The notes beneath the pieces were generated by a model that saw only the letters and a list, made by a program, of their open reading frames with translations, was not told the DNA's origin and made no database searches. Source: an uncultured virus (IMG/VR IMGVR_UViG_3300012665_000884) (taxonomy: Duplodnaviria > Heunggongvirae > Uroviricota > Caudoviricetes). Taken from it: 38,890 nucleotides of DNA. Position 1 is the stretch's first letter. Every line of letters starts with the position of its first letter. A program made the translations under genes and the position numbers. The stretch lies in IMG/VR virus record IMGVR_UViG_3300012665_000884. One strand, written 5' to 3'. Positions 3,759 through 38,890 of this stretch are shown here, one piece after another.

Positions 3759-4016
3759 TACTTCCGTTTTCTAAAAACGACACTTCCAAGTGCTTGATTT
3801 TAAACGATAATCCAGACAAGAAAAACACAAAAGTGATGGAAATGCAGTTTCCGCACGTGGACGTAGGGTAGCACGTATTGGAAACAAAAGTACTCAAAAT
3901 CCTATTATCCTACTCCCAACGTCCACCCCAACCAGTTTCGAATAGGTTTATTATACATGGAACTGGAATTCCGTCAAGACAGTAAAAAGTATTACTTTGT
4001 TTTGGTAGGGTATTGG

Positions 4017-4045
4017 TTGACAAGTGGTAATATTCCTGGTATAAT
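4017..4045 (+). promoter_or_regulatory. Sigma70-type early promoter
   Basis: TTGACA-17-TATAAT with TG extension. Confidence 0.85.
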
Positions 4046-4069
4046 AGTATGGAAGAAAGAGAGATAAAG

Positions 4070-4288
4070 ATGGATAATTTAAATTCAATTTCAGTGGCAG
4101 ATATGATCGCGGCATTGTCTCGCCTACCTGCTGACGCACGTTTGGTGGTTACTCATTCCGGTTACTACTGCTATGATTCCTTCGCTGATATCTACGTACC
4201 TACTCCAGTCGATGCTGTGGGTGATCGTGTGTCTGATCCTGCGGATGCTGTTGCTTACTCTATCGGTCATTCTCATCAGTCCTATTAA
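4070..4288 (+). CDS. Hypothetical early protein
   Basis: ORF downstream of the promoter with a purine-rich leader. Confidence 0.7.
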   Translation: MDNLNSISVADMIAALSRLPADARLVVTHSGYYCYDSFADIYVPTPVDAVGDRVSDPADAVAYSIGHSHQSY

Positions 4289-4376
4289 TACCTGAGCAAA
4301 ATAGTCAGGTATTGGTTGACAGGATGGTAAAAGTGTGGTATAATTACCTCAAGAAATCAGAAAAGAGAGTTAAAAA
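4287..4376 (+). promoter_or_regulatory. Early promoter module: palindrome, promoter and conserved leader
   Basis: AATACCTGA-N9-TCAGGTATT, TTGACA 4316, TATAAT 4339, leader CAAGAAATCAGAAAAGAGAG. Confidence 0.85.
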
Positions 4377-5803: not shown

Positions 5804-5845
5804 AGTCAGGTATTGCTTGACAAGATGGTAATTGTGTGGTATAAT
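5804..5845 (+). promoter_or_regulatory. Early promoter module
   Basis: AGTCAGGTATT half-site, TTGACA 5817, TATAAT 5840. Confidence 0.8.
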
Positions 5846-6054
5846 TGATGCAAGAAAAGAGAAAAGATACCATGACACTAATCACAGACTTCATCAAATC
5901 CGCTGTAATTGCCACCTTGTTTTTCTGGCCATTGTTCTACTACTACTTGGCCTAAGGAGCTACCATGATCTCTATGCGTAAACGTAAAAAAAAGTTGTAC
6001 TCTGGTCGTAATGCGCCATTGATGTTCGCCTTGTTGGATTCTATGATCCGTAAG

Positions 6055-6179: not shown

Positions 6180-6202
6180 AAGGCAATGGGCATTCTCCCA
6201 AG

Positions 6203-6297
6203 AATACCTGACTAAAATTTGTGAGTACTTTTGCTATACTTGACATTTGGTAAATATCTGTTATACTAGAGTTAAGAAATCAGAAAGAGAGCCAAAA
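6203..6297 (+). promoter_or_regulatory. Early promoter module
   Basis: AATACCTGACTAAAATTTGTGAGTACTTTT, TTGACA 6240, TATACT 6262, leader AAGAAATCAGAAAGAGAG. Confidence 0.8.
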
Positions 6298-6462
6298 ATG
6301 TTCGTAGTTTACAACTTTTCCTATCCTAACTATCATCCTCGTTTCTACGCTACTAAGCGTGGTGCATTGATTGCCCGTGGACGTAATAACGCTAATCCTA
6401 AGAACTTTCAATGCGGTGTGTTGAGTGTTGAGGATTTTAATAAAGTGTTTGGAGTAAAATAA
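6298..6462 (+). CDS. Hypothetical early protein
   Basis: ATG 6298 after the conserved leader. Confidence 0.7.
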   Translation: MFVVYNFSYPNYHPRFYATKRGALIARGRNNANPKNFQCGVLSVEDFNKVFGVK

Positions 6463-6635: not shown

Positions 6636-6874
6636 TGGAATACACTACTATCTGGTCTGGCTCTGCTGTACGTGCGGCCCTTACTGTTAAAATGCGTGGC
6701 CAGACTGCTGGCGCTGTCCAATTTGTCGTTGCTGATAATGACAAGTGCACCTTCTGGTTACCGAAGTCTGCTCTGAAATGGAAAGATAGCCAATACCAGT
6801 TAGCGTTCTGGTTCACCAAGACACCTTACTTAAAGGGTCTGTTTGACCGCTATGCTACTCACTACAAAGCATAA
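6635..6874 (+). CDS. Hypothetical early protein
   Basis: ORF track; FWLPKS motif. Confidence 0.7.
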   Translation: MEYTTIWSGSAVRAALTVKMRGQTAGAVQFVVADNDKCTFWLPKSALKWKDSQYQLAFWFTKTPYLKGLFDRYATHYKA

Positions 6875-6968
6875 TACCTGACTAAAATTTGTGAGTACTT
6901 TTTACTGACTTGACAATGGTACACTTTTGTGGTATAATTAACTCAAGAAATCAGAAAGAGAGTTAAAA
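6873..6968 (+). promoter_or_regulatory. Early promoter module
   Basis: Same upstream block as at 6203, TTGACA 6910, TATAAT 6933, conserved leader. Confidence 0.85.
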
Positions 6969-7044
6969 ATGTTGTTATTTGTTGTTGCTGTGTTTACGTT
7001 CTTGGTTGTGTTGTCTGCTATCTCTACCGCTCTGGAGAAATAAA

Positions 7045-7922: not shown

Positions 7923-8168
7923 ATGAACGAACAATTTAGAAAACTATTATCTCGGGCTACTGAGTTAGCGGATGAAGAATATGGTTATGACGGATCAGAT
8001 TACGCCGAGATTGTTCAGGAAAAGTTCGCCGAGTTGATTGTTAGGGAATGTATCGATATTGCTAAAAATTGGGAAGACGAACTAGAAAATGCCAACATGC
8101 TCAGCGAATCAAATGCAGCTGGCATCGTGGCATATCGAATTGCACGACAATTTGGAGTTAAAGAATGA
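7923..8168 (+). CDS. MNER/EKFAELIVxEC paralog 1
   Basis: Shares MNE.., EKFAELIVREC and FGVKE with three neighbours. Confidence 0.8.
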   Translation: MNEQFRKLLSRATELADEEYGYDGSDYAEIVQEKFAELIVRECIDIAKNWEDELENANMLSESNAAGIVAYRIARQFGVKE

Positions 8169-8389
8169 ACGAACGAATTTGGGAACTTGCTGAACAGGCT
8201 ATTACAGATGATTTGCCCGAGCCAATCGCAATACCTGCTGAATTTGTTGTAAGGCTCGCCGAGTTGATTGTGAAAGAATGTGCCCAACTTGCACGTGACA
8301 CTGATTTAGAAGATGTTGAAGGCGGTGATAGTGATGTATTACGAGCAGCAAAACGTCAGATTCTAGAACATTTCGGAGTTGAAGAATGA
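8165..8389 (+). CDS. MNER/EKFAELIVxEC paralog 2
   Basis: MNERIWELAEQA...LAELIVKEC...HFGVEE. Confidence 0.8.
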   Translation: MNERIWELAEQAITDDLPEPIAIPAEFVVRLAELIVKECAQLARDTDLEDVEGGDSDVLRAAKRQILEHFGVEE

Positions 8390-8461
8390 CAGAGATACAG
8401 GGATGGATCATTGTAGTCTGTGCAATACTGATTACTATACGAATGTTGTTGGAGCCTTGAT

Positions 8462-8704
8462 ATGAACGAACGAATTGAAAAACTTGCTGAACAGGCTGTA
8501 CTACAAGCCAACGAAGTGTTTGACCAAAAAGGTAAAGACTATATGGGAATTGTCATGGAAAAGTTCGCTGAGTTGATTGCCAAGGAATGTATGGATGCAG
8601 TAGGCGATGGTCCATTAGAGCGTCCAGCAATCCAACGTATCAAAGCCAAGTTTGGTGTTGAATATTATGAGCCAATTGAAAAAGCATTCGGAGTTGAAGA
8701 ATGA
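8462..8704 (+). CDS. MNER/EKFAELIVxEC paralog 3
   Basis: MNERIEKLAEQA...EKFAELIAKEC...FGVEE. Confidence 0.8.
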   Translation: MNERIEKLAEQAVLQANEVFDQKGKDYMGIVMEKFAELIAKECMDAVGDGPLERPAIQRIKAKFGVEYYEPIEKAFGVEE

Positions 8705-8928
8705 ACGAACGAATTGAAAAACTTATCTCTGAGTCTATTAAGGCGATTCCCGACCATGTAGACTTTGATTTGCCTAAAGAGTTTACTGAAAAGTTCGCCG
8801 AGTTGATTGTGCTAGAATGTGCTAGTCAAGTTAGGTTTACTGATTTACTATTATGTAATGATGACAGTGACGGTGAAATATTGTTGCAGGCATCTGTACA
8901 GTTGAAACAACATTTCGGAGTTGAATAA
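8701..8928 (+). CDS. MNER/EKFAELIVxEC paralog 4
   Basis: MNERIEKL...EKFAELIVLEC...HFGVE. Confidence 0.8.
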   Translation: MNERIEKLISESIKAIPDHVDFDLPKEFTEKFAELIVLECASQVRFTDLLLCNDDSDGEILLQASVQLKQHFGVE

Positions 8929-8991
8929 TACTTGACTAAACTTTGTGAGTACTTTTTACTGACTTGACATTTTCTCCATTCCTGGTATAAT
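8927..8991 (+). promoter_or_regulatory. Early promoter module
   Basis: AATACTTGACTAAACTTTGTGAGTACTTTTTACTGAC, TTGACA 8964, TATAAT 8986. Confidence 0.8.
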
Positions 8992-9130
8992 AGAGACTGA
9001 TTTAGAGAAAAGGAAGAAAATGCGATTCACCGTGATTACAAAGAATGGTAAAACCTTAGTATTCAATATCAAGGCTTGTGCTGAAATCTTCCTGCAGGCT
9101 TATGGTGGTGTTTTGTTTAGTAATGAAATC

Positions 9131-13579: not shown

Positions 13580-13649
13580 GTTGTATTTTTGCAACTTATA
13601 CGAAACACTTTTAAAAAGTGCTTGACAAATTGTTCCAACCTGCTATACT
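13580..13649 (+). promoter_or_regulatory. Promoter with upstream GTTG-N8-CAAC site
   Basis: GTTGtatttttgCAAC 13580-13595, TTGACA 13622, TGcTATACT ending 13649. Confidence 0.75.
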
Positions 13650-13655
13650 AATAAC

Positions 13656-13877
13656 ATGTTAAAAGTTATTGAGTTTGTTGGTGTTTTTTGTGGTATCGTA
13701 GGTTCATTCCTTGTTGCCAGAGGTTTTCTCGAAATTGGTTTCTGTCTGTTCTTAGTGTCGTCAATTGCACTATGTTACTCCGCAGTAAAACAAAAGAATT
13801 GGAACTTAACTTTGTTGCAAAGTGCTTTCCTATTCTCAAATATTTTGGGTGTGTCTAACTATGTTTTTGGAGTTTAA
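13656..13877 (+). CDS. Small membrane protein with three TM segments, probably leaderless
   Basis: Three hydrophobic segments; ATG 6 nt after the -10. Confidence 0.75.
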   Translation: MLKVIEFVGVFCGIVGSFLVARGFLEIGFCLFLVSSIALCYSAVKQKNWNLTLLQSAFLFSNILGVSNYVFGV

Positions 13878-16509: not shown

Positions 16510-16536
16510 TGTTCTTTAAAAAGTTGTAGAGTAAAT
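16510..16536 (+). promoter_or_regulatory. boxA-like leader, copy 1
   Basis: TGTTCTTTAAAAAGTTGTAGAGTAAAT resembles rrn boxA TGCTCTTTAACA; repeated at 17301. Confidence 0.65.
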
Positions 16537-16539
16537 TGT

Positions 16540-16613
16540 TGGGGCATTGTGTAGTGGTAGCACAACGGTCTTTGAAGCCGTTAGTACTGGTTCGATTCCA
16601 GTTGCCCCTGCCA
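16540..16613 (+). tRNA. tRNA-Gln(TTG)
   Basis: Cloverleaf; ACGGT-ctTTGaa-GCCGT; encoded CCA. Confidence 0.92.
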
Positions 16614-16689
16614 TATGAAAACACATTAGTCGGTCATGCCTTGGCTGGGTAAAGATTGGCAAACCAATCGCTAGTGTGTTTCCATATGG
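16611..16689 (+). ncRNA. Inter-tRNA stem cassette A (putative three-way-junction RNA)
   Basis: CCATATGAAAACACATTAG pairs with CTAGTGTGTTTCCATATGG; internal hairpins CGGTCA/TGGCTG and GATTGG/CCAATC. Confidence 0.6.
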
Positions 16690-16782
16690 AGAGTAATGCA
16701 GGTGGGATGGTCCGCCGACGTGCCTTGAAAACACGGTTCTGCTGAATAAGTGGATGGGGTTCGACTCCTCTGCTCTCCGCCA
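16688..16782 (+). tRNA. tRNA-Ser(TGA), 8/4-type
   Basis: 8-bp acceptor GGAGAGTA/TGCTCTCC, 4-bp T stem, long variable arm, G73, CCA. Confidence 0.85.
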
Positions 16783-16788
16783 AATAAT

Positions 16789-16878
16789 GGTGAGGTCCTA
16801 TAATGGTATTAGAGCGGATTGCTAATCCGTCGGTCGGCGAAAGTTGGCTTCTGGGTTCGAGTCCCAGTCTCACCGCCA
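16789..16878 (+). tRNA. tRNA-Ser(GCT)
   Basis: GCGGA-ttGCTaa-TCCGT; long variable arm; GCCA end. Confidence 0.92.
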
Positions 16879-16891
16879 AAGAAAGATAATT

Positions 16892-17131
16892 ATGTGGAAT
16901 ATTAAAATTGAAAATGGAATGATATTGAATGCAAGTCCAACTTTGGATGATGCAATGAAGTTCGCAAAAAGTTATAACAAGTTTGTAATCATCACCGATG
17001 GTACTACCGAGATTGTAGGCAAGTTCGGTGTTGATGCAGTTGAAGACAAGATTCTACCTGATGGTGAATCATACACTTGGACAATGCGTAGGGATGAAAC
17101 TCACCGCAGTTCAAGAAAAAAGTTAGTGTAG
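16892..17131 (+). CDS. Conserved phage hypothetical protein within the tRNA array
   Basis: MWNIKIENG...EIVGKFGVDAVEDKILPDGESYTW; stop overlaps the tRNA-Cys 5' end. Confidence 0.75.
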   Translation: MWNIKIENGMILNASPTLDDAMKFAKSYNKFVIITDGTTEIVGKFGVDAVEDKILPDGESYTWTMRRDETHRSSRKKLV

Positions 17132-17205
17132 CGGTGGCAGAGTGGTCAATTGCAACGGATTGCAAATCCGTAAAGTCGTGAGTTCAAATCTCACCCGCTA
17201 CTCCA
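17128..17205 (+). tRNA. tRNA-Cys(GCA)
   Basis: ACGGA-ttGCAaa-TCCGT; U73; CCA. Confidence 0.92.
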
Positions 17206-17275
17206 GTTGTTAAAAAACAACAAATCAAAAATATTTTGAAAAAGTTGTTGACAAAGTTTGTGGATGTGTTATACT
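17206..17275 (+). promoter_or_regulatory. Promoter with upstream GTTG-N8-CAAC site
   Basis: GTTGttaaaaaaCAAC 17206-17221, TTGACA 17248, TGtTATACT ending 17275. Confidence 0.75.
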
Positions 17276-17300
17276 TCATCCATGAGTTGAGAAATCAACA

Positions 17301-17327
17301 TGTTCTTTAAAAATTTGTAGAGTAAAT
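17301..17327 (+). promoter_or_regulatory. boxA-like leader, copy 2
   Basis: TGTTCTTTAAAAATTTGTAGAGTAAAT, 26/27 identical to 16510-16536. Confidence 0.65.
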
Positions 17328-17402
17328 GCACGATTCGTCTATCGGTTAGGACGCTGCCCTTTCAAGGCGGAAAGACGAGTTCGATTCTCGTATCGTGTAC
17401 CA
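17328..17402 (+). tRNA. tRNA-Glu(TTC)
   Basis: CTGCC-ctTTCaa-GGCGG; CCA. Confidence 0.92.
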
Positions 17403-17641
17403 TATTAAATTATATTAGGTTATCAATGCCAGTAGGTAACATAGCATCGTGATGTACACTGCCGAGTGTGCCGTGTCTATGTTACATGAAAGATGGAAAC
17501 GAAGTCTAAGGACGGATACTGTAAATCACGCTGGGTAAGTTGATGCGTAATGTGGTTGACAAACAAATCCATGGACGGCATGGTAGGGCAGTTTCAAAGC
17601 TGTTATTTTTGTCAAACATCCTAGTGTAATTTAATATGGTA
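17398..17641 (+). ncRNA. Inter-tRNA stem cassette B (about 240-nt structured RNA)
   Basis: 22-bp closing stem TACCATATTAAATTATATTAGG/CCTAGTGTAATTTAATATGGTA with multiple internal helices. Confidence 0.7.
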
Positions 17642-17645
17642 GAAT

Positions 17646-17720
17646 GCCTTGATAGCATAAAGGTAGTGCCGTCAACTCATAATTGATATGGTACTGGTTC
17701 GAATCCAGTTCAAGGCACCA
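17646..17720 (+). tRNA. tRNA-Met/Ile2(CAT)
   Basis: GTCAA-ctCATaa-TTGAT; ACCA end. Confidence 0.88.
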
Positions 17721-17724
17721 ACAT

Positions 17725-17798
17725 GGGGGTATAACTTAGTGGTAAAGTGTCTGGCTTTTAACCAGAGAACCAGAGTTCAATTCTCTGTGCCCCTACCA
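17725..17798 (+). tRNA. tRNA-Lys(TTT)
   Basis: TCTGG-ctTTTaa-CCAGA. Confidence 0.92.
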
Positions 17799-17810
17799 TA
17801 TAATAGTTTT

Positions 17811-17896
17811 GGAGAACGAGAAGCATTGGCGACTTCAGGTGACTGTAAATCATCCACCTTCGGGTATACGGGGTTCGATTCCCTGGTTCTCCACCA
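17811..17896 (+). tRNA. tRNA-Tyr(GTA)
   Basis: GGTGA-ctGTAaa-TCATC; variable arm; ACCA end. Confidence 0.9.
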
Positions 17897-17901
17897 AATT
17901 T

Positions 17902-17976
17902 AGTCTCAAAGTGTTCATGGACGCACATCAGCCTGTCACGCTGAAAGAAGGGGATCGTTACCCCTTGGGACTGCCA
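17902..17976 (+). tRNA. tRNA-Asp(GTC)
   Basis: TCAGC-ctGTCac-GCTGA; atypical T-loop ATCGTTA; GCCA end. Confidence 0.88.
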
Positions 17977-17983
17977 AGTTTAT

Positions 17984-18062
17984 TCCGGAAAATCCAAGCA
18001 TGGTGCAAGGACTTGACTGTTAATCAATGATTAGGTGGGTTCGATCCCCACATCCGGAGCCA
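17984..18062 (+). tRNA. tRNA-Asn(GTT)
   Basis: TTGA-ctGTTaa-TCAA; GCCA end. Confidence 0.9.
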
Positions 18063-18066
18063 ACAT

Positions 18067-18143
18067 GCCCTCTTACTCCAATTGGTAGAGAGGACGGCCT
18101 TAGAAGCCGTAAAGTCTGAGTTCGAATCTCAGAGAGGGCACCA
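18067..18143 (+). tRNA. tRNA-Leu(TAG), short variable loop
   Basis: ACGGC-ctTAGaa-GCCGT; 5-nt variable region. Confidence 0.88.
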
Positions 18144-18149
18144 GAGCCT

Positions 18150-18190
18150 CGCCTTGACTGATGGCGTATAAAAGGATAAGTAATCAGTTA
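18150..18190 (+). ncRNA. Putative H-type pseudoknot in a tRNA spacer
   Basis: CGCC/GGCG stem; loop TGACTGAT pairs with ATCAGTTA (18183-18190). Confidence 0.4.
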
Positions 18191-18193
18191 TTT

Positions 18194-18268
18194 GGGCTGT
18201 TAGTGATAATGGTAGCACATGTGCTTTGCAAGCATGAAGCAGGAGTTCGATTCTCCTACGGTCCACCA
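18194..18268 (+). tRNA. tRNA-Ala(TGC)
   Basis: TGTGC-ttTGCaa-GCATG; G3.U70. Confidence 0.92.
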
Positions 18269-18274
18269 AATTCT

Positions 18275-18323
18275 GTAATGATGCGATCCACTCAGTTCAT
18301 TCTGTTTGCAGTAACATCATTAC
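18275..18323 (+). ncRNA. Small stem-closed element in a tRNA spacer
   Basis: Perfect 9-bp GTAATGATG/CATCATTAC enclosing 31 nt. Confidence 0.35.
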
Positions 18324-18327
18324 TTTT

Positions 18328-18401
18328 GCCCTGTTAGTTTAGTGGTAGAGCACCGGTTTTGTAATCCGGGAACGGCAGTTCGATTCTGTCACGGGGCACC
18401 A
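18328..18401 (+). tRNA. tRNA-Thr(TGT)
   Basis: CCGGt-ttTGTaa-tCCGG; ACCA end. Confidence 0.9.
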
Positions 18402-18407
18402 AGTTTT

Positions 18408-18483
18408 CTCTCTAAAGTGTTATCTGGTTGCATCCGCGGTTTGGGGCCGTGTGGTCTAGGTTCAAATCCTAGTAGGGAGACCA
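18408..18483 (+). tRNA. tRNA-Pro(TGG)
   Basis: CGCGG-ttTGGgg-CCGTG; C1-G72; A73. Confidence 0.9.
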
Positions 18484-18510
18484 ATTATAGTAGATTATAG
18501 TAGATTATAG
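18484..18510. repeat. 10-bp tandem repeat, 2.7 copies
   Basis: ATTATAGTAG ATTATAGTAG ATTATAG. Confidence 0.85.
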
Positions 18511-18582
18511 CGGGTAGGGCGGTCACCACACCGGTCTCATAAGCCAGGTGCATCGGCAGTTCGAATCTGTCACCCGCTTCCA
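18509..18582 (+). tRNA. Atypical tRNA-Met(CAT)
   Basis: AGCGGGT/ACCCGCT acceptor, loop ctCATaa, normal T arm; short D arm, bulged anticodon stem, U73. Confidence 0.7.
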
Positions 18583-18587
18583 ATTTT

Positions 18588-18663
18588 GGTGATATAGTTC
18601 AATTGGTAGAACACCACCTTCATACGGTGACTGTTGGGAGTTCAAGTCTCTCTATCACCACCA
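18588..18663 (+). tRNA. tRNA-Met/Ile2(CAT)
   Basis: CACC-ttCATac-GGTG; ACCA end. Confidence 0.85.
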
Positions 18664-18668
18664 ATTAT

Positions 18669-18743
18669 GCAGTAATGGTTGGGTAGGGGCGTAGGCTCCG
18701 CATTCTAGATTCCCGCAAAGGTTCGAGTCCTTTGGCTGCACCA
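18669..18743 (+). ncRNA. tRNA-like RNA lacking canonical D and anticodon arms
   Basis: Acceptor GCAGTaA/TgGCTGC, perfect T arm AAAGG-TTCGAGT-CCTTT, ACCA end; middle does not form a cloverleaf. Confidence 0.65.
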
Positions 18744-18749
18744 AATAAT

Positions 18750-18824
18750 GGGCGATTCGTATAGTGAATAATACACGAGGCTACGAACCTTGAAACAGGA
18801 GTTTGATTCTCTTATTGCCCTCCA
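18750..18824 (+). tRNA. tRNA-Arg(ACG)
   Basis: CGAGG-ctACGaa-CCTTG. Confidence 0.88.
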
Positions 18825-18829
18825 AATTT

Positions 18830-18903
18830 ACCTGGTTAGTTAAATGGTATAACGGAGGCTTGATAAGCCTTTATTACAAGTTCAATTCTTGTACCAGGTA
18901 CCA
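18830..18903 (+). tRNA. tRNA-Ile(GAT)
   Basis: GAGGC-ttGATaa-GCCTT. Confidence 0.9.
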
Positions 18904-18908
18904 AATAT

Positions 18909-18982
18909 ATCTCGTTGGTGTAATGGTAGCACAAGAAACTCCAAATCTCTTGGCGGGAGTTCGATTCTCTCACGGGATACCA
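18909..18982 (+). tRNA. tRNA-Trp(CCA)
   Basis: AGAaA-ctCCAaa-TcTCT; CCA end. Confidence 0.88.
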
Positions 18983-19004
18983 GTTCGTTAGAAAAAGGAA
19001 TAAT

Positions 19005-19475
19005 ATGTACAACGAAAAAATTGACTTGGAAGAAGTGAAAGCATACGTAGAAAATTGTGGTCCAGATACCAAAATTTATCTGGGTTGCGATTCTGAGAAA
19101 GTTAAGGTAAGAGGTGATTGGTATGCTGATTACATTATCGCCATCGTTGTGCATATTGACGGTAAACATGGTTGCAAAATCTTTGGTCAAATTACCAGAG
19201 AACGAGACTATGAAAAACAACGCAACAAGCCTAGAATGCGATTGATGAATGAAGTGTATAAAGTGGCTGATATGTACCTGCAATTATCGGAAATGATTGC
19301 GAATGATATTGAAGTTCATCTTGACATTAACCCTAACCAAATGTATAATTCTAGTATTGTTGTTAACGAAGCGGTAGGATATATAAAGGGTATGTGTAAC
19401 GTAGTGCCTTTGGTTAAGCCAAATGCATTCGCCGCTTCTTACGCCGCAGATAGATTGAAAAGTTTAGCGGCTTAG
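19005..19475 (+). CDS. RNase H-like YkuK (DUF458) family protein
   Basis: KIYLGCDS, IAIVVH...GCKIF, RLMNEV, EVHLDIN, VKPNAFAASYAADR. Confidence 0.85.
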   Translation: MYNEKIDLEEVKAYVENCGPDTKIYLGCDSEKVKVRGDWYADYIIAIVVHIDGKHGCKIFGQITRERDYEKQRNKPRMRLMNEVYKVADMYLQLSEMIANDIEVHLDINPNQMYNSSIVVNEAVGYIKGMCNVVPLVKPNAFAASYAADRLKSLAA

Positions 19476-19515
19476 ACGCCGCACCCCGATGCCCATATCG
19501 TTAAATGGGCAAGTT

Positions 19516-19589
19516 GCGGGATTAGTTTAGTGGTAAAACGTCATCCTTCCAAGTTGAAGTTGCGAGTTCGATTCTCGCATCCCGCTCCA
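19516..19589 (+). tRNA. tRNA-Gly(TCC)
   Basis: GCGGGAT/ATCCCGC; loop ctTCCaa; U73. Confidence 0.92.
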
Positions 19590-19665
19590 TATAAAAACAC
19601 ACTTGACTAAATTCGGGTTCATCCGTGTGACTTAGTTGTTCCTATATTGAGTGTGTTTTTATATG
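19588..19665 (+). ncRNA. Inter-tRNA stem cassette C
   Basis: CATATAAAAACACACTT/GAGTGTGTTTTTATATG (17 bp); internal GACTAA/TTAGTT and CGGG-ttca-TCCG. Confidence 0.6.
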
Positions 19666-19738
19666 CGGGATTGATGTAATGGTTGCCTGTGACCTTGCCA
19701 AGGTTATCGTAGGAGTTCGATTCTCCTATCCCGCTCCA
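19665..19738 (+). tRNA. tRNA-Gly(GCC)
   Basis: TGACC-ttGCCaa-GGTTA; U73. Confidence 0.92.
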
Positions 19739-19744
19739 GTTTAT

Positions 19745-19819
19745 GGTGTCTATAGTTTAGTGGTAAAACCACGGGTTGTGATTCCGTTATCACGGGTTCA
19801 ATTCCCGTTAGACACCCCA
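19745..19819 (+). tRNA. tRNA-His(GTG)
   Basis: ACGGG-ttGTGat-TCCGT; G-1:C73. Confidence 0.92.
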
Positions 19820-19824
19820 ATTAT

Positions 19825-19899
19825 GCCTTGTTAACTCAGCGGTAGAGTGTCTCCCTTACAAGGAGAAGGTCGGCGGTTCGATCCCGTCACAAGGTACCA
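19825..19899 (+). tRNA. tRNA-Val(TAC)
   Basis: TCTCC-ctTACaa-GGAGA. Confidence 0.93.
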
Positions 19900-19904
19900 A
19901 TTAT

Positions 19905-19980
19905 GCAACTTTAGCTGATGTGGTCATAGCGGTGGTTTGAAGAACCATTGAAAGAGGTTCGATTCCTCTAGGTTGCACCA
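19905..19980 (+). tRNA. tRNA-Phe(GAA)
   Basis: GTGGT-ttGAAga-ACCAT. Confidence 0.9.
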
Positions 19981-20107
19981 TATAAAAACATTCTGAGTAA
20001 CTACGGTGGATAAACAGTAAACTTACAAACGCCGGCCAATGTAAGAACCTGCCATGAAGTAGGGTTACCAAGAGATTCAAGGACTCGGCAGAATGTTTCT
20101 ATATGGT
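19977..20107 (+). ncRNA. Inter-tRNA stem cassette D (multi-junction RNA)
   Basis: ACCATATAAAAACATTCTG/CAGAATGTTTCTATATGGT; internal GTAAC/GTTAC, CTTACA/TGTAAG, CCTGC/GTAGG. Confidence 0.65.
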
Positions 20108-20179
20108 TTGTAAACTTTGATGGCGAAGTACCCGGCTCTTACCCGGACTAACAGAGTTCGATTCTCTGACAAACCACCA
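20105..20179 (+). tRNA. tRNA-Lys(CTT)
   Basis: CCGG-ctCTTac-CCGG; ACCA end. Confidence 0.88.
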
Positions 20180-20181
20180 GA

Positions 20182-20327
20182 TTTTGAGATAGACGTTGAG
20201 GTTGAGTCCCTTGTTCGCTAGTGCCCTATTCTTGAGCATGACACACCAGTAGCAGTTCAAGGTTGTTAAACTCCCTCAAACGAGACAAGCCAATGAGTCC
20301 TTAAGAAAGATAGTTGGTCTCTCAAAA
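20182..20327 (+). ncRNA. Putative structured ncRNA (about 145 nt)
   Basis: TTTTGAGA/TCTCAAAA closing stem; TTGAGG/CCTCAA, GAGT/ACTC and CTTGAGC/GTTCAAG nested helices; no ORF. Confidence 0.5.
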
Positions 20328-20352
20328 ACCTATTAGTACTTTTATCTTATAT

Positions 20353-20379
20353 TGACAAATCTTCGGATTATGATATAAT
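20353..20379 (+). promoter_or_regulatory. Sigma70-type promoter
   Basis: TTGACA...TGaTATAAT upstream of the phosphoesterase. Confidence 0.75.
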
Positions 20380-20399
20380 TTAATTTTAGGAGATAACAC

Positions 20400-20927
20400 A
20401 TGTCTAACATTTTTCTTGTAAGTGACACACATTTTGGTCACCTTGGTGTGTGTAAATTTCTCCGCAATGACGGAACAAAACTTCGACCTTGGGATAGTCC
20501 TGAGGAAATGGATGAAGCAATGGTGAAAGCATGGAACGAAACTGTGCGACCAAACGATAAAGTATATCATCTCGGTGATGTTGTTATCAACCGAAAAGCA
20601 CTTGCTACACTTAGCAGACTTAACGGTGATAAAGTCCTTATCAAAGGCAACCATGATATTTTCAGACTTGAAGAATACACCGCACATTTTAGGGACATTC
20701 GTGCTTATCATGTGATGGACAATATCATCATGTCACACATTCCCATACACATGAGTTCAAAAGGCAGATTCAAAGGAAACATTCATGGTCATACACATTC
20801 CAACAATGTAATGATTATGCATGGCGAAAAAGAAACCAATAACATTGATCCTTGGTATCAATGTGTATGTGTTGAACAAACAGATTTCAAACCAATTCCA
20901 TTTGAAGAGGTAAGAAAACGATTTTAA
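20400..20927 (+). CDS. Calcineurin-like metallophosphoesterase
   Basis: SDTHFGH, HLGDV, KGNHD, SHIP and HGHTH motifs. Confidence 0.9.
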   Translation: MSNIFLVSDTHFGHLGVCKFLRNDGTKLRPWDSPEEMDEAMVKAWNETVRPNDKVYHLGDVVINRKALATLSRLNGDKVLIKGNHDIFRLEEYTAHFRDIRAYHVMDNIIMSHIPIHMSSKGRFKGNIHGHTHSNNVMIMHGEKETNNIDPWYQCVCVEQTDFKPIPFEEVRKRF

Positions 20928-20928
20928 T

Positions 20929-21011
20929 GCGGGCATGGTGGAATGGTAGACACAAGAGACTTAAAATCTCTCGCCCTGTGCGTCCCGGTTCGAGTCCGGG
21001 TGCCCGTACCA
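20929..21011 (+). tRNA. tRNA-Leu(TAA)
   Basis: AGAGA-ctTAAaa-TCTCT; variable arm present. Confidence 0.92.
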
Positions 21012-21014
21012 AAT

Positions 21015-21091
21015 GCGCTTATATCCCAATTGGTAGAGGAATCAGTTTCAAACACTGACCAGTGTGAGTTCGAATCTCACTAAGCGTACCA
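21015..21091 (+). tRNA. tRNA-Leu(CAA), short variable loop
   Basis: TCAGT-ttCAAac-ACTGA; 5-nt variable region. Confidence 0.88.
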
Positions 21092-21096
21092 CATAA

Positions 21097-21117
21097 TTAC
21101 TCTACAATTTTTTAAAG
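21097..21117 (+). repeat. Reverse complement of the boxA leaders
   Basis: TTACTCTACAATTTTTTAAAG is complementary to 16514-16534 and 17305-17325. Confidence 0.8.
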
Positions 21118-21122
21118 TATAT

Positions 21123-21197
21123 CCGGCGTTAGTATAATGGATAATACAGCGGTCTTCTACACCGTGAATATGGGTTCGATTCCTGTACGCCGGACCA
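21123..21197 (+). tRNA. tRNA-Arg(TCT)
   Basis: GCGGT-ctTCTac-ACCGT. Confidence 0.92.
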
Positions 21198-22278: not shown

Positions 22279-22379
22279 TACACTTTAGATACGGATATCG
22301 GCCACCGTATCAGAATCGTTTGGTAAACAAAAGTACTAAAACGAGAATTTCAGAGGCCGAATTTCTTGATAAAAAACAC

Positions 22380-22408
22380 TTGACAAATTTTCCATTCCTG
22401 CTATACTG
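22380..22408 (+). promoter_or_regulatory. Sigma70-type promoter
   Basis: TTGACA-17-TATACT with TG extension. Confidence 0.8.
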
Positions 22409-22434
22409 ATTCCATAGATTGATAAGGAGTTCGT

Positions 22435-22638
22435 ATGACTTGGAATTTAGAAGGCAAAAAAGTTGCTGGTAAGTACTTGGAAGAGTATCCTTTCATTGGT
22501 GTGGTTGTTGAAAGCCGTGTTAAGTACGGCGGTAAGGTTTGTAATACTATCTTACTAGATGCACCAATCGTGGTGTTCGGTGAGTTTCGTACCCGTGTGC
22601 TGGTAGAGACTGACCAAATTAGTCAAGTATTCGCTTGA
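22435..22638 (+). CDS. Hypothetical protein
   Basis: AAGGAG SD; GVVVESRVKYGG. Confidence 0.75.
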   Translation: MTWNLEGKKVAGKYLEEYPFIGVVVESRVKYGGKVCNTILLDAPIVVFGEFRTRVLVETDQISQVFA

Positions 22639-22642
22639 CCGC

Positions 22643-22701
22643 TTGACAAAGTTCCCAAACTGTGGTATAATTAACTCAAGAAATCAGAAAGAGAGAACAA
22701 A
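22643..22701 (+). promoter_or_regulatory. Early promoter module with conserved leader
   Basis: TTGACA-17-TATAAT then TAACTCAAGAAATCAGAAAGAGAG, as at 6933-6962. Confidence 0.85.
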
Positions 22702-23115
22702 ATGGCTTATATGAATCAAGAGAAAAAAGCAGTTATCAAAGCGGCTTTAGATAAGGCTCTAAAAGGTACCGGCGTTAAATTTTCGTTGTCAGTCTCAAAT
22801 CATACCTCAATTAGTTGCAACATCAAATCTGCTCCTATCGACTTGATTGCAAATATGAATGACGTTTGCCGATGTGCGCCTGGTGCGGATCGTTACGGTA
22901 AGTACCAAGATTCTGTCGGTAATGCCCAAGTTAATCCTTACTGGTACAAGGATCATTTTTCAGGTAAGGCTTTACAAATCATTGACAAAGTTGTGAAAGC
23001 CATGTATAGTGCAAACTACTACAATAATTCTGATGCGATGATAGACTACTTCGATTGTGCTTACTACATACATGTAAATATCGGTAAGTGGGATAAACCT
23101 TTCCAAGTTAAATGA
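22702..23115 (+). CDS. Conserved phage early protein
   Basis: MAYMNQEKK, VKFSLS, NNSDAMIDYFD.AYYIH.NIGKWDKPF. Confidence 0.8.
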   Translation: MAYMNQEKKAVIKAALDKALKGTGVKFSLSVSNHTSISCNIKSAPIDLIANMNDVCRCAPGADRYGKYQDSVGNAQVNPYWYKDHFSGKALQIIDKVVKAMYSANYYNNSDAMIDYFDCAYYIHVNIGKWDKPFQVK

Positions 23116-29529: not shown

Positions 29530-29656
29530 AATGCTAGTCAGCCTATCAACCGCCGATCTATTCGTCCTAGGCCTCTTCCTAGGAGGGTTATTCGGTAGAT
29601 TGGTTACTTTTGGAATCATGGCCTGCTGGCTTGTTGTTTCAATGCTATTAAAGTAG

Positions 29657-29716
29657 TTGACTATTTTAGTCAGGTATTAAAATAGTGCTTGACAATTATT
29701 ACCAGCCTGTTATACT
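29657..29716 (+). promoter_or_regulatory. Early promoter module
   Basis: TGACTA-ttt-TAGTCA-GGTATT, TTGACA 29689, TATACT 29711. Confidence 0.8.
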
Positions 29717-29747
29717 ATATTCATAGATTGATAGAAAGAGGTCGAAA

Positions 29748-38588: not shown

Positions 38589-38602
38589 TTACCAAAATAT
38601 TA

Positions 38603-38631
38603 TTGACAATAAATAAAAATGAGAGTATAAT
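38603..38631 (+). promoter_or_regulatory. Sigma70 promoter of the tmRNA gene
   Basis: TTGACA-17-TATAAT. Confidence 0.85.
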
Positions 38632-38637
38632 AACTCT

Positions 38638-38890
38638 CAATGATAGTAAACTTGGTATAAGAAAAGTATTCTGGACGGGGGTGCGAATCCCCCCAGGTCC
38701 ACCATAAACATATTGGAGATATTATGACAACAGAAGAATATTGGAAATGGATGCGTGAAAACTTCCAGTAATGTGTTTATGATGGGCCTGCATAGTTTCG
38801 ACAGAGTAACAAGTACGATATTCGGCTATCCGTCAGAGTTGACGTAAACACTAAATCAAAATAAATGCAAATGACGAAAGTTACGCATTG
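38638..38890 (+). ncRNA. ssrA: Circularly permuted (two-piece) tmRNA, 3'-truncated by the window
   Basis: Acceptor piece (GGGGG-TGCGAAT-CCCCC-CAGGTCC-ACCA, ends 38704) precedes the coding piece starting GGGCCTG...TTCGAC at 38784; G3.U70; tag ANDESYAL from 38867. Confidence 0.92.
38724..38771 (+). CDS. Putative 15-aa mini-ORF inside the tmRNA intervening segment
   Basis: GGAG SD at 38715-38718; MTTEEYWKWMRENFQ-stop. Confidence 0.4.
   Translation: MTTEEYWKWMRENFQ

Follow-up and report, generated by a model that had tools for sequence, protein, structure and literature searches.

The question raised by this locus is what fills the space between two neighbouring tRNA genes in the tRNA array of an uncultured virus. 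A preliminary description had placed there an unrecognised, highly structured RNA of about 240 nt, lying between tRNA-Glu and a tRNA with a CAT anticodon. Both neighbours were confirmed, as tRNA-Glu(UUC) and tRNA-Met(CAT), and are separated by 243 nt. Between them there was no ORF of more than 50 aa on either strand, in keeping with the earlier view that the region holds no credible ORF.

The tRNA array and its surroundings

The window, which is the whole stretch of 38,890 nt that was analysed, is a same-strand block of small genes with strong TTGACA-N17-TATAAT promoters, and carries 26 tRNA genes at 16540-21197. It was assigned to a T4-like phage on the basis of its Pfam domains (T4 RNase H, SegE GIY-YIG, DNA ligase, denV-like glycosylase, PhoH and ClpP). 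The cultured relatives were distant only, with protein identities of 26-30% (Cr30, DLP6, phiM12, ACP17 and PA5oct). The transcript that carries the RNA likely starts at a promoter-like site at 17248-17275. The features of the locus are as follows.

17248..17275, + strand: sigma-70-type promoter-like site upstream of tRNA-Glu (TTGACA-16-TATACT, 11/12, with a TG extension)
17328..17402, + strand: tRNA-Glu(UUC), the last 5 nt of which (UACCA) form the outermost pairs of P1
17398..17419, + strand: 5' arm of P1 (22 nt), the first five bases being the UACCA end of tRNA-Glu
17420..17546, + strand: domain I, comprising P2-P5, with the conserved junction bases GGUUAYC, CCRNUAGG and NGAAR
17422-17427/17539-17544, + strand: P2 (domain I)
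17429-17433/17530-17534, + strand: P3 (domain I)
17436-17485, + strand: P4 hairpin (domain I)
17486-17492, + strand: junction AUGAAAG (domain I)
17492-17527, + strand: variable P5 region (domain I)
17547..17552, + strand: conserved junction GUAAUG, between P2 and P6
17552..17619, + strand: domain II, in which P6 encloses the hairpins P7 and P8
17552-17563/17608-17619, + strand: P6 (domain II)
17569-17583, + strand: P7 hairpin, CCAUG-GACGG-CAUGG (domain II)
17587-17604, + strand: P8 hairpin (domain II), with the helix GGCAG/CTGTT at 17587-17591/17600-17604
17620..17641, + strand: 3' arm of P1, ending 4 nt ahead of tRNA-Met
17646..17720, + strand: tRNA-Met(CAT), directly downstream of the RNA

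The promoter-like site is one of a family of repeated promoter cassettes. Cassettes with shared flanks, some of them inverted, are present at 4009-4366, 5804-5867, 6200-6309, 6870-6980, 8924-8995, 13612-13657, 22370-22415, 22630-22713 and 29650-29724. We take them to resemble the promoter-early stem-loop (PeSL) modules of T4-type phages, in which such modules shuffle small early genes. A 26-nt leader motif, CTTTAAAAATTTGTAGAGTAA, precedes both tRNA-Glu and tRNA-Gln (17300-17325, and also 16514-16534), and its reverse complement follows tRNA-Leu(CAA) at 21097-21122. Judged from their sequences, the two could pair across the whole 3.8-kb tRNA block in the transcript.

The array encloses two ORFs, one encoding a PF04308 RNase H-like (YkuK-type) protein (19005-19475, with 320 relatives in IMG/VR) and the other a calcineurin-like phosphoesterase (20400-20927). 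Three further sequences resemble tRNAs, each with a T arm of the GGTTCGA type and a CCA end (16690-16786, ~17982-18063 and ~18668-18745); they were called neither by ARAGORN nor by the Rfam tRNA model, and may be odd or degenerate tRNAs. Elsewhere in the window, a permuted (two-piece) tmRNA gene at 38589-38890 is cut by the right end; it scored 109 bits with RF04321 and 90 bits with the betaproteobacterial tmRNA model, and the latter match may hint at the host group. At 7923-8928, four small ORFs of 74-81 aa lie in tandem; they are paralogous, with repeated starts and ends, and none of the four had a Pfam match.

Fold, covariation and distribution of the RNA

The + strand of 17398-17641 folds to -80 kcal/mol, compared with -57.6 +/- 4.5 kcal/mol in 200 shuffles (z -5.0), and none of the 200 shuffles equalled it, which bears out the proposal of a highly structured RNA. 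The fold of the - strand is weaker (z -3.45). The 22-bp closing stem that had been reported is a real inverted repeat (17398-17419/17620-17641), 91% complementary and with G-U for the remainder. This stem, P1, leads into a three-way junction (P1/P2/P6) from which the two domains branch. Domain I continues through P2 and P3 into a second three-way junction (P3/P4/P5), formed with the P4 hairpin and the variable P5. The conserved unpaired bases are GGUUAYC, (CCRN)UAGG, NGAAR after P4, GUAAUG before P6 and a GACGN loop on P7.

Homologs were collected in two sets. The first comprised 80 loci from IMG/VR that surround relatives of the array ORF 19005-19475; among them, L062 and L031/L029 carried the element by blastn. 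A covariance model, R1, was built from these three sequences, and added L071, L045, L063, L061/L065 and L067, the last of which is cut at a contig end. In total, 9 of these 80 loci carry the RNA, in seven distinct sequences. A scan of IMG/VR with a three-motif pattern returned at least 120 matches, from which a second set of 80 loci was fetched. R1 matched 70 of them at E<5e-6 and six more at E<1e-3 with filters off (76/80); L118 was borderline, and L115, L139 and L141 were unconvincing. Carrier contigs reach 367 kb among the IMG/VR matches listed. As GGUUAYC, CCRNUAGG and GUAAUG were fixed by the search pattern, their invariance in the large set is partly imposed; GGUUAYC, (CCRN)UAGG and GUAAUG were also present in all members found without the pattern.

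The members range from 194 to 250 nt. Little of domain II is left in L129, L112, L082 and L085, and L086, L097 and L119 lack the tip of P4, so that the minimal core consists of P1-P5 and the junctions.

Covariation among homologs, which the preliminary description had put forward as a check, was analysed in 64 distinct sequences aligned to R1, with 76 model pairs in 11 helices. Pairing was observed in 92.2% of the cells, compared with 64.2% in shuffles, and dropped to 34-44% when the partners were slid by 1-3 columns. Changes on both sides were found in 68 of the 76 pairs, and none of 500 shuffles attained any of the five covariation measures. In P1 (helix 1), both sides change in 21 of 22 pairs, and 95.7% of the cells are paired. 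Because the R1 alignment is fitted to the model, a MAFFT-only alignment of domain I was also made (51 sequences, with transferred structure). In this alignment 66.5% of cells were paired, compared with 56.6% when shuffled and 27-46% when slid; P3 was 90% paired and the base of P4 75%.

The constraint acts on the RNA of the + strand, because G-U pairs fill 438 of the 4356 cells and R1 scores 239.7 bits on the + strand vs 21.9 bits antisense.

Five of the inner stems that had been drawn within the closing stem are kept and covary in the homologs, namely GTAACATAG/CTATGTTAC, GTACACT/AGTGTGC, TTGACAAA/TTTGTCAA, CCATG/CATGG and TATCAAT/GTTGATG, the last in the form ATCAAT/GTTGAT. Two of the proposed pairings did not hold. 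The stem CAGTTT/AAGCTG was mis-registered and would leave a 1-nt loop, the conserved helix at this place being GGCAG/CTGTT in P8. The pseudoknot CGTGAT/ATCACG is kept in neither L062 nor L031 and gave no covariation signal; a mutual-information scan of the unpaired columns returned only clade-correlated column pairs, with no support for a pseudoknot. A kissing interaction between the P4 loop (GCCG) and the P7 loop (GACGG) was rejected by eye, as the two are not complementary in members where both read GACG.

The catalogue searches were negative. The whole window, searched against Rfam 15 (4227 models) at gathering score, contained tRNAs and a tmRNA only, and the element itself had no match at E<=10. 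The absence of an Rfam match thus agrees with the earlier reading of the RNA as unrecognised and as lacking RNase P, SRP and group I hallmarks, and 6S and tmRNA identities were rejected on the same grounds. Twenty diverse homolog loci (E<=10) gave matches of the flanking tRNA type only and none inside the element. Of the two outcomes that the preliminary description had set as refutations, an Rfam hit and a lack of covariation, neither was thus observed. In the literature searched, no description of the RNA was found. A 2023 catalogue holds, in its accessible part, 8495 candidate RNAs from IMG/VR of 29-151 nt (PMC10690425), and the full RNA is absent from that catalogue, going by this size range; none of five contig ids searched occurs in its supplement file 4, and sub-parts of the RNA may be listed in the catalogue.

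The same motif pattern was applied to prokaryotes, with one genome for each of 185,579 species. Of the 61 motif matches, none matched R1 at E<=0.01; they represent the chance background of the pattern, and the family is thus phage-only at this sensitivity. A blastn search ('distant') with three members found no match among 50,697 GenBank phages. RsoM2USA, Cr30, DLP6, BUCT-ZZ01 and ACP17 were searched with R1 and with a domain-I model, R2, without a match (0/5), in a search whose prefilter missed two of five known copies. R2 was made from a MAFFT alignment with an automatic structure of only 9 pairs, and is mostly a sequence profile. One copy per record was present, in the three of five records where the search found the element. 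We file the RNA as a new family, an uncatalogued and phage-only one, within the known kind of orphan structured RNAs of phage tRNA clusters.

Genomic contexts and long-stem cassettes

Among the 64 members, 25 have the terminal NACCA of an upstream tRNA as their first five bases (Glu in 19, Ile in three, Leu in two and Ser in one), and a downstream tRNA starts within 20 nt in 31. A tRNA lies within 400 nt in 52 members and in none of the other 12. Three tRNA-free members, in jumbo-phage records, were checked over +/-6 kb and had no tRNA in that range. These free-standing copies sit among early genes, in a setting of small same-strand ORFs whose products had no informative Pfam match, and their P1 arms differ in sequence and keep the same length. 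In L137, the RNA (313-546) lies behind a promoter on the - strand (TTGACA-17-TACAAT, 11/12, with a TG extension, 555-583), which ends 9 nt before the 5' end of the RNA; the long P1 is missing, and from its sequence the RNA looks like a primary transcript. The tRNA-free members, the L137 promoter and the single copy per record argue that the RNA is an independent gene. At least 19 of the 22 P1 pairs are formed in 56 of the 64 members. The long P1 is absent in L090, L136 and L137, so the core does not require it.

Stems of the P1 type are used generally by these phages to enclose cassettes; neither this nor the occurrence of the RNA away from tRNAs had been recognised in the preliminary description. 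Four long-stem cassettes are present in the window, namely the RNA itself (17398-17641) and the three below, which have stems of 16-19 bp.

16611-16689: begins on the CCA of tRNA-Gln; cargo of 41 nt
19588-19665: begins on the CCA of tRNA-Gly-UCC; cargo of 46 nt
19977-20107: begins on the CCA of tRNA-Phe; cargo of 93 nt

All four start on a tRNA CCA, extend to the next tRNA or tRNA-like gene or close to it, and have the arm motif CCAUAU-N-AAAAC in common. The cassette at 19977-20107 was considered as a member of the RNA family and rejected, as it carries AUGAA, UAGG and GGUUACC in a different order and had no R2 match at E<=1; the resemblance is treated as coincidence.

When cassettes with stems of at least 19 bp were counted in the tRNA region of the window and in 80 related loci (81 sources), 166 were found, with 125 distinct cargos. 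By blast, the cargos form 85 clusters, 18 of them multi-member (the RNA family is one of these) and 67 singletons. The closest relatives, L003 and L005, have the same leader, the same two P1 arms and the flanking tRNA-Glu and tRNA-Met, but enclose an unrelated cargo of ~75 nt. The RNA is thus dispensable, as the closest relatives hold other cargo in the same slot. A further related locus, L002 (marker ORF of 87% identity), has a tRNA with the anticodon UUA at 125-201, which would read the stop codon UAA and is a possible suppressor tRNA.

Proposed mechanism, alternatives and known systems

With slightly better than even confidence, we lean towards reading 17398-17641 as the gene of a stable, trans-acting structured ncRNA that is transcribed together with the tRNAs and set free through processing of the RNase III/RNase P type. 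Transcription of the RNA and the tRNAs would start at the early sigma-70-type promoter (17248-17275) and run rightward. P1 (~22 bp) would join the 3' ACCA of tRNA-Glu to the bases directly ahead of tRNA-Met and thereby set the ~200-nt core apart as a separate folding unit. For RNase III substrates a stem of about two helical turns is expected, and going by its length P1 may be the substrate of such a double-strand RNase. A cut by RNase P at the 5' end of tRNA-Met would set the 3' boundary of the precursor, and together with cleavage of P1 would free the core as a stable RNA. In trans, the freed RNA would work by way of its conserved junctions, P1/P2/P6 and P3/P4/P5, with GGUUAYC, UAGG, NGAAR and GUAAUG as the core bases, and its partner would most likely be a protein or RNA of the translation or RNA-processing machinery of host or phage.

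Across clades, P1 is kept in length rather than in sequence and is dispensable where the RNA has its own promoter, and is therefore as expected of a processing stem. RNase III processing stems flank rRNAs and phage early RNAs in polycistronic transcripts, and the duplex of about two turns around the present RNA, in its polycistronic setting, may be analogous to them. Unlike in those stems, the arm sequence is unusually conserved among the cassettes of this phage group, a constancy that cleavage by host RNase III should not call for. The RNase III gene (PF14622) was found in none of five RNA-bearing phage records, so that the host enzyme would be needed. A weak hint of an RNA end comes from RNA-library contigs (which can include DNA), one each from two studies, that lie over the 3' domain in relatives. 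In X3 the match breaks off at 17614 and adapter letters follow, X22 ends at 17618, and both ends lie just before the 3' arm of P1.

No partner gene was found among TROVE, RNase III, PF04308 and the neighbours of the free-standing copies. The TROVE/Ro60 domain was found in none of the five RNA-bearing phage records, although a host-encoded Ro60 could still exist, and PF04308 occurs in only one of five other RNA-bearing records. An uL11/GTPase-centre mimic appeared unlikely on comparison by eye: the rRNA site has the same three-way topology as P3/P4/P5, but the hairpin loops differ.

Three other explanations were weighed. The RNA may be a cis-acting spacer or insulator of the tRNA polycistron that holds the flanking tRNAs in register, the excised piece being waste, or, in a variant, its structure may guide or slow the 5' and 3' maturation of the flanking tRNAs. 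The placement of the members speaks for such a role (25/64 start on an upstream NACCA, and 31/64 have a tRNA within 20 nt downstream), as do the three further cassettes of the same type with short cargo in the window, the 125 distinct long-stem cassettes in 81 sources with their 67 singletons, and the close relatives that retain the stem and exchange the cargo. A simple hairpin would suffice for it, however, whereas the RNA has a ~200-nt core with ten further helices and junction bases kept across deep divergence, and some members have no tRNA within 6 kb or lie behind their own promoter; we therefore regard the spacer as unlikely. The 22-nt arms could also be the terminal inverted repeats of a DNA-level, MITE-like mobile cassette, in which the inner conservation would reflect recent spread. 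The arm sequence is common to the four window cassettes and to many in relatives, and cargo has been swapped between close relatives while arms and flanks are homologous. Against this stand the compensatory changes and G-U pairs through all 11 helices, which denote strand-specific selection at the RNA level, and the antisense score of 22 bits vs 240 bits in sense. The members are also deeply diverged rather than recent copies, with one copy per record, no direct target duplication at the ends and no transposase nearby, and a mobile element of this kind appears highly improbable.

The RNA could also be a new ribozyme that cleaves itself or the adjacent tRNA precursor, in a role like that of the HDV-like theta ribozymes, a reading that we consider quite unlikely. 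Its conservation is centred on the junctions, with peripheral helices that vary or are lost, as is typical of catalytic or ligand-binding cores, and its size exceeds 190 nt. On the other hand, no Rfam ribozyme family matched at E<=10, the pseudoknot has no covariation support, neither boundary has a conserved unpaired site (P1 is a plain duplex), and the free-standing copies have no obvious cleavage target. Theta ribozymes are small HDV-like folds. Their position next to phage tRNA genes, as described in the accessible part of PMC10879173, is paralleled by the 25 of 64 members directly 3' of tRNAs, and the present RNA is likewise placed directly beside phage tRNA genes. It differs from the HDV-like and theta ribozymes in having no HDV-family match at E<=10 and no extra covarying pairs among the unpaired columns that would indicate their nested double-pseudoknot fold.

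For the trans-acting ncRNA favoured here, the closest analogues are T4 rnaC (species 1, 139 nt) and rnaD (species 2, 119 nt), at 70908-71171 of NC_000866. Like the present RNA, they belong to the tRNA cluster of a T4-type phage, are encoded on the same strand as its tRNAs and contain no ORF. Host RNases excise them from the tRNA precursor, and we know of no function assigned to them. In NC_000866 68000-76000, R1 with filters off found nothing on rnaC/rnaD, the best score being 9.8 bits elsewhere. The present RNA has about twice their length and a closing helix of 22 bp, and it lacks the tRNA-like T arm in which rnaC ends. From the sequence comparison, it would be analogous and not homologous to rnaC/rnaD.

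YrlA, the Y RNA-like partner of Ro60/Rsr, occurs in phages, and its structured module is closed by a long helix between the 5' and 3' ends, as is that of the present RNA. The present RNA differs from YrlA in having no RF02553 match, no tRNA-like module and no TROVE gene in five records. The comparison with GOLLD and ROOL made in the preliminary description, as RNAs that stand beside phage tRNAs and are much longer, was fair. In the accessible part of PMC12286853, GOLLD and ROOL are described as large and ornate RNAs with covariation support, encoded by phages and prophages and in many cases close to tRNA islands; GOLLD is often longer than 800 nt, and both form multimeric cages. The present RNA shares with them its place near phage tRNA genes (a tRNA within 400 nt in 52/64 members), and differs in its length of 194-250 nt, in having no Rfam match to either and in its absence from the prokaryote genomes scanned.

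Complex-fold RNAs of more than 200 nt with such covariation are few, and most of those characterised are ribozymes, riboswitches or RNP scaffolds. A more far-reaching proposal, which we hold only tentatively and think doubtful, is that the two-junction core represents a new functional RNA class acting on tRNA or the translation apparatus in infection. If so, the core could act as a large ribozyme of a new kind or as an RNA that binds tRNA or the ribosome, expressed by freshwater T4-like and jumbo phages from their tRNA operons, and the long-stem cassettes would be a general phage platform to express and exchange small RNAs.

The RNA is abundant in uncultured T4-like and jumbo phages of freshwater type and absent from the 185,579 prokaryote genomes scanned. 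It shares the tRNA-operon niche with T4 rnaC/rnaD and with GOLLD/ROOL, and structural studies can draw on the family for a well-defined alignment. The RNA and the exchangeable long-stem cassettes together suggest that phages also use their tRNA arrays as platforms for the expression of small RNAs.
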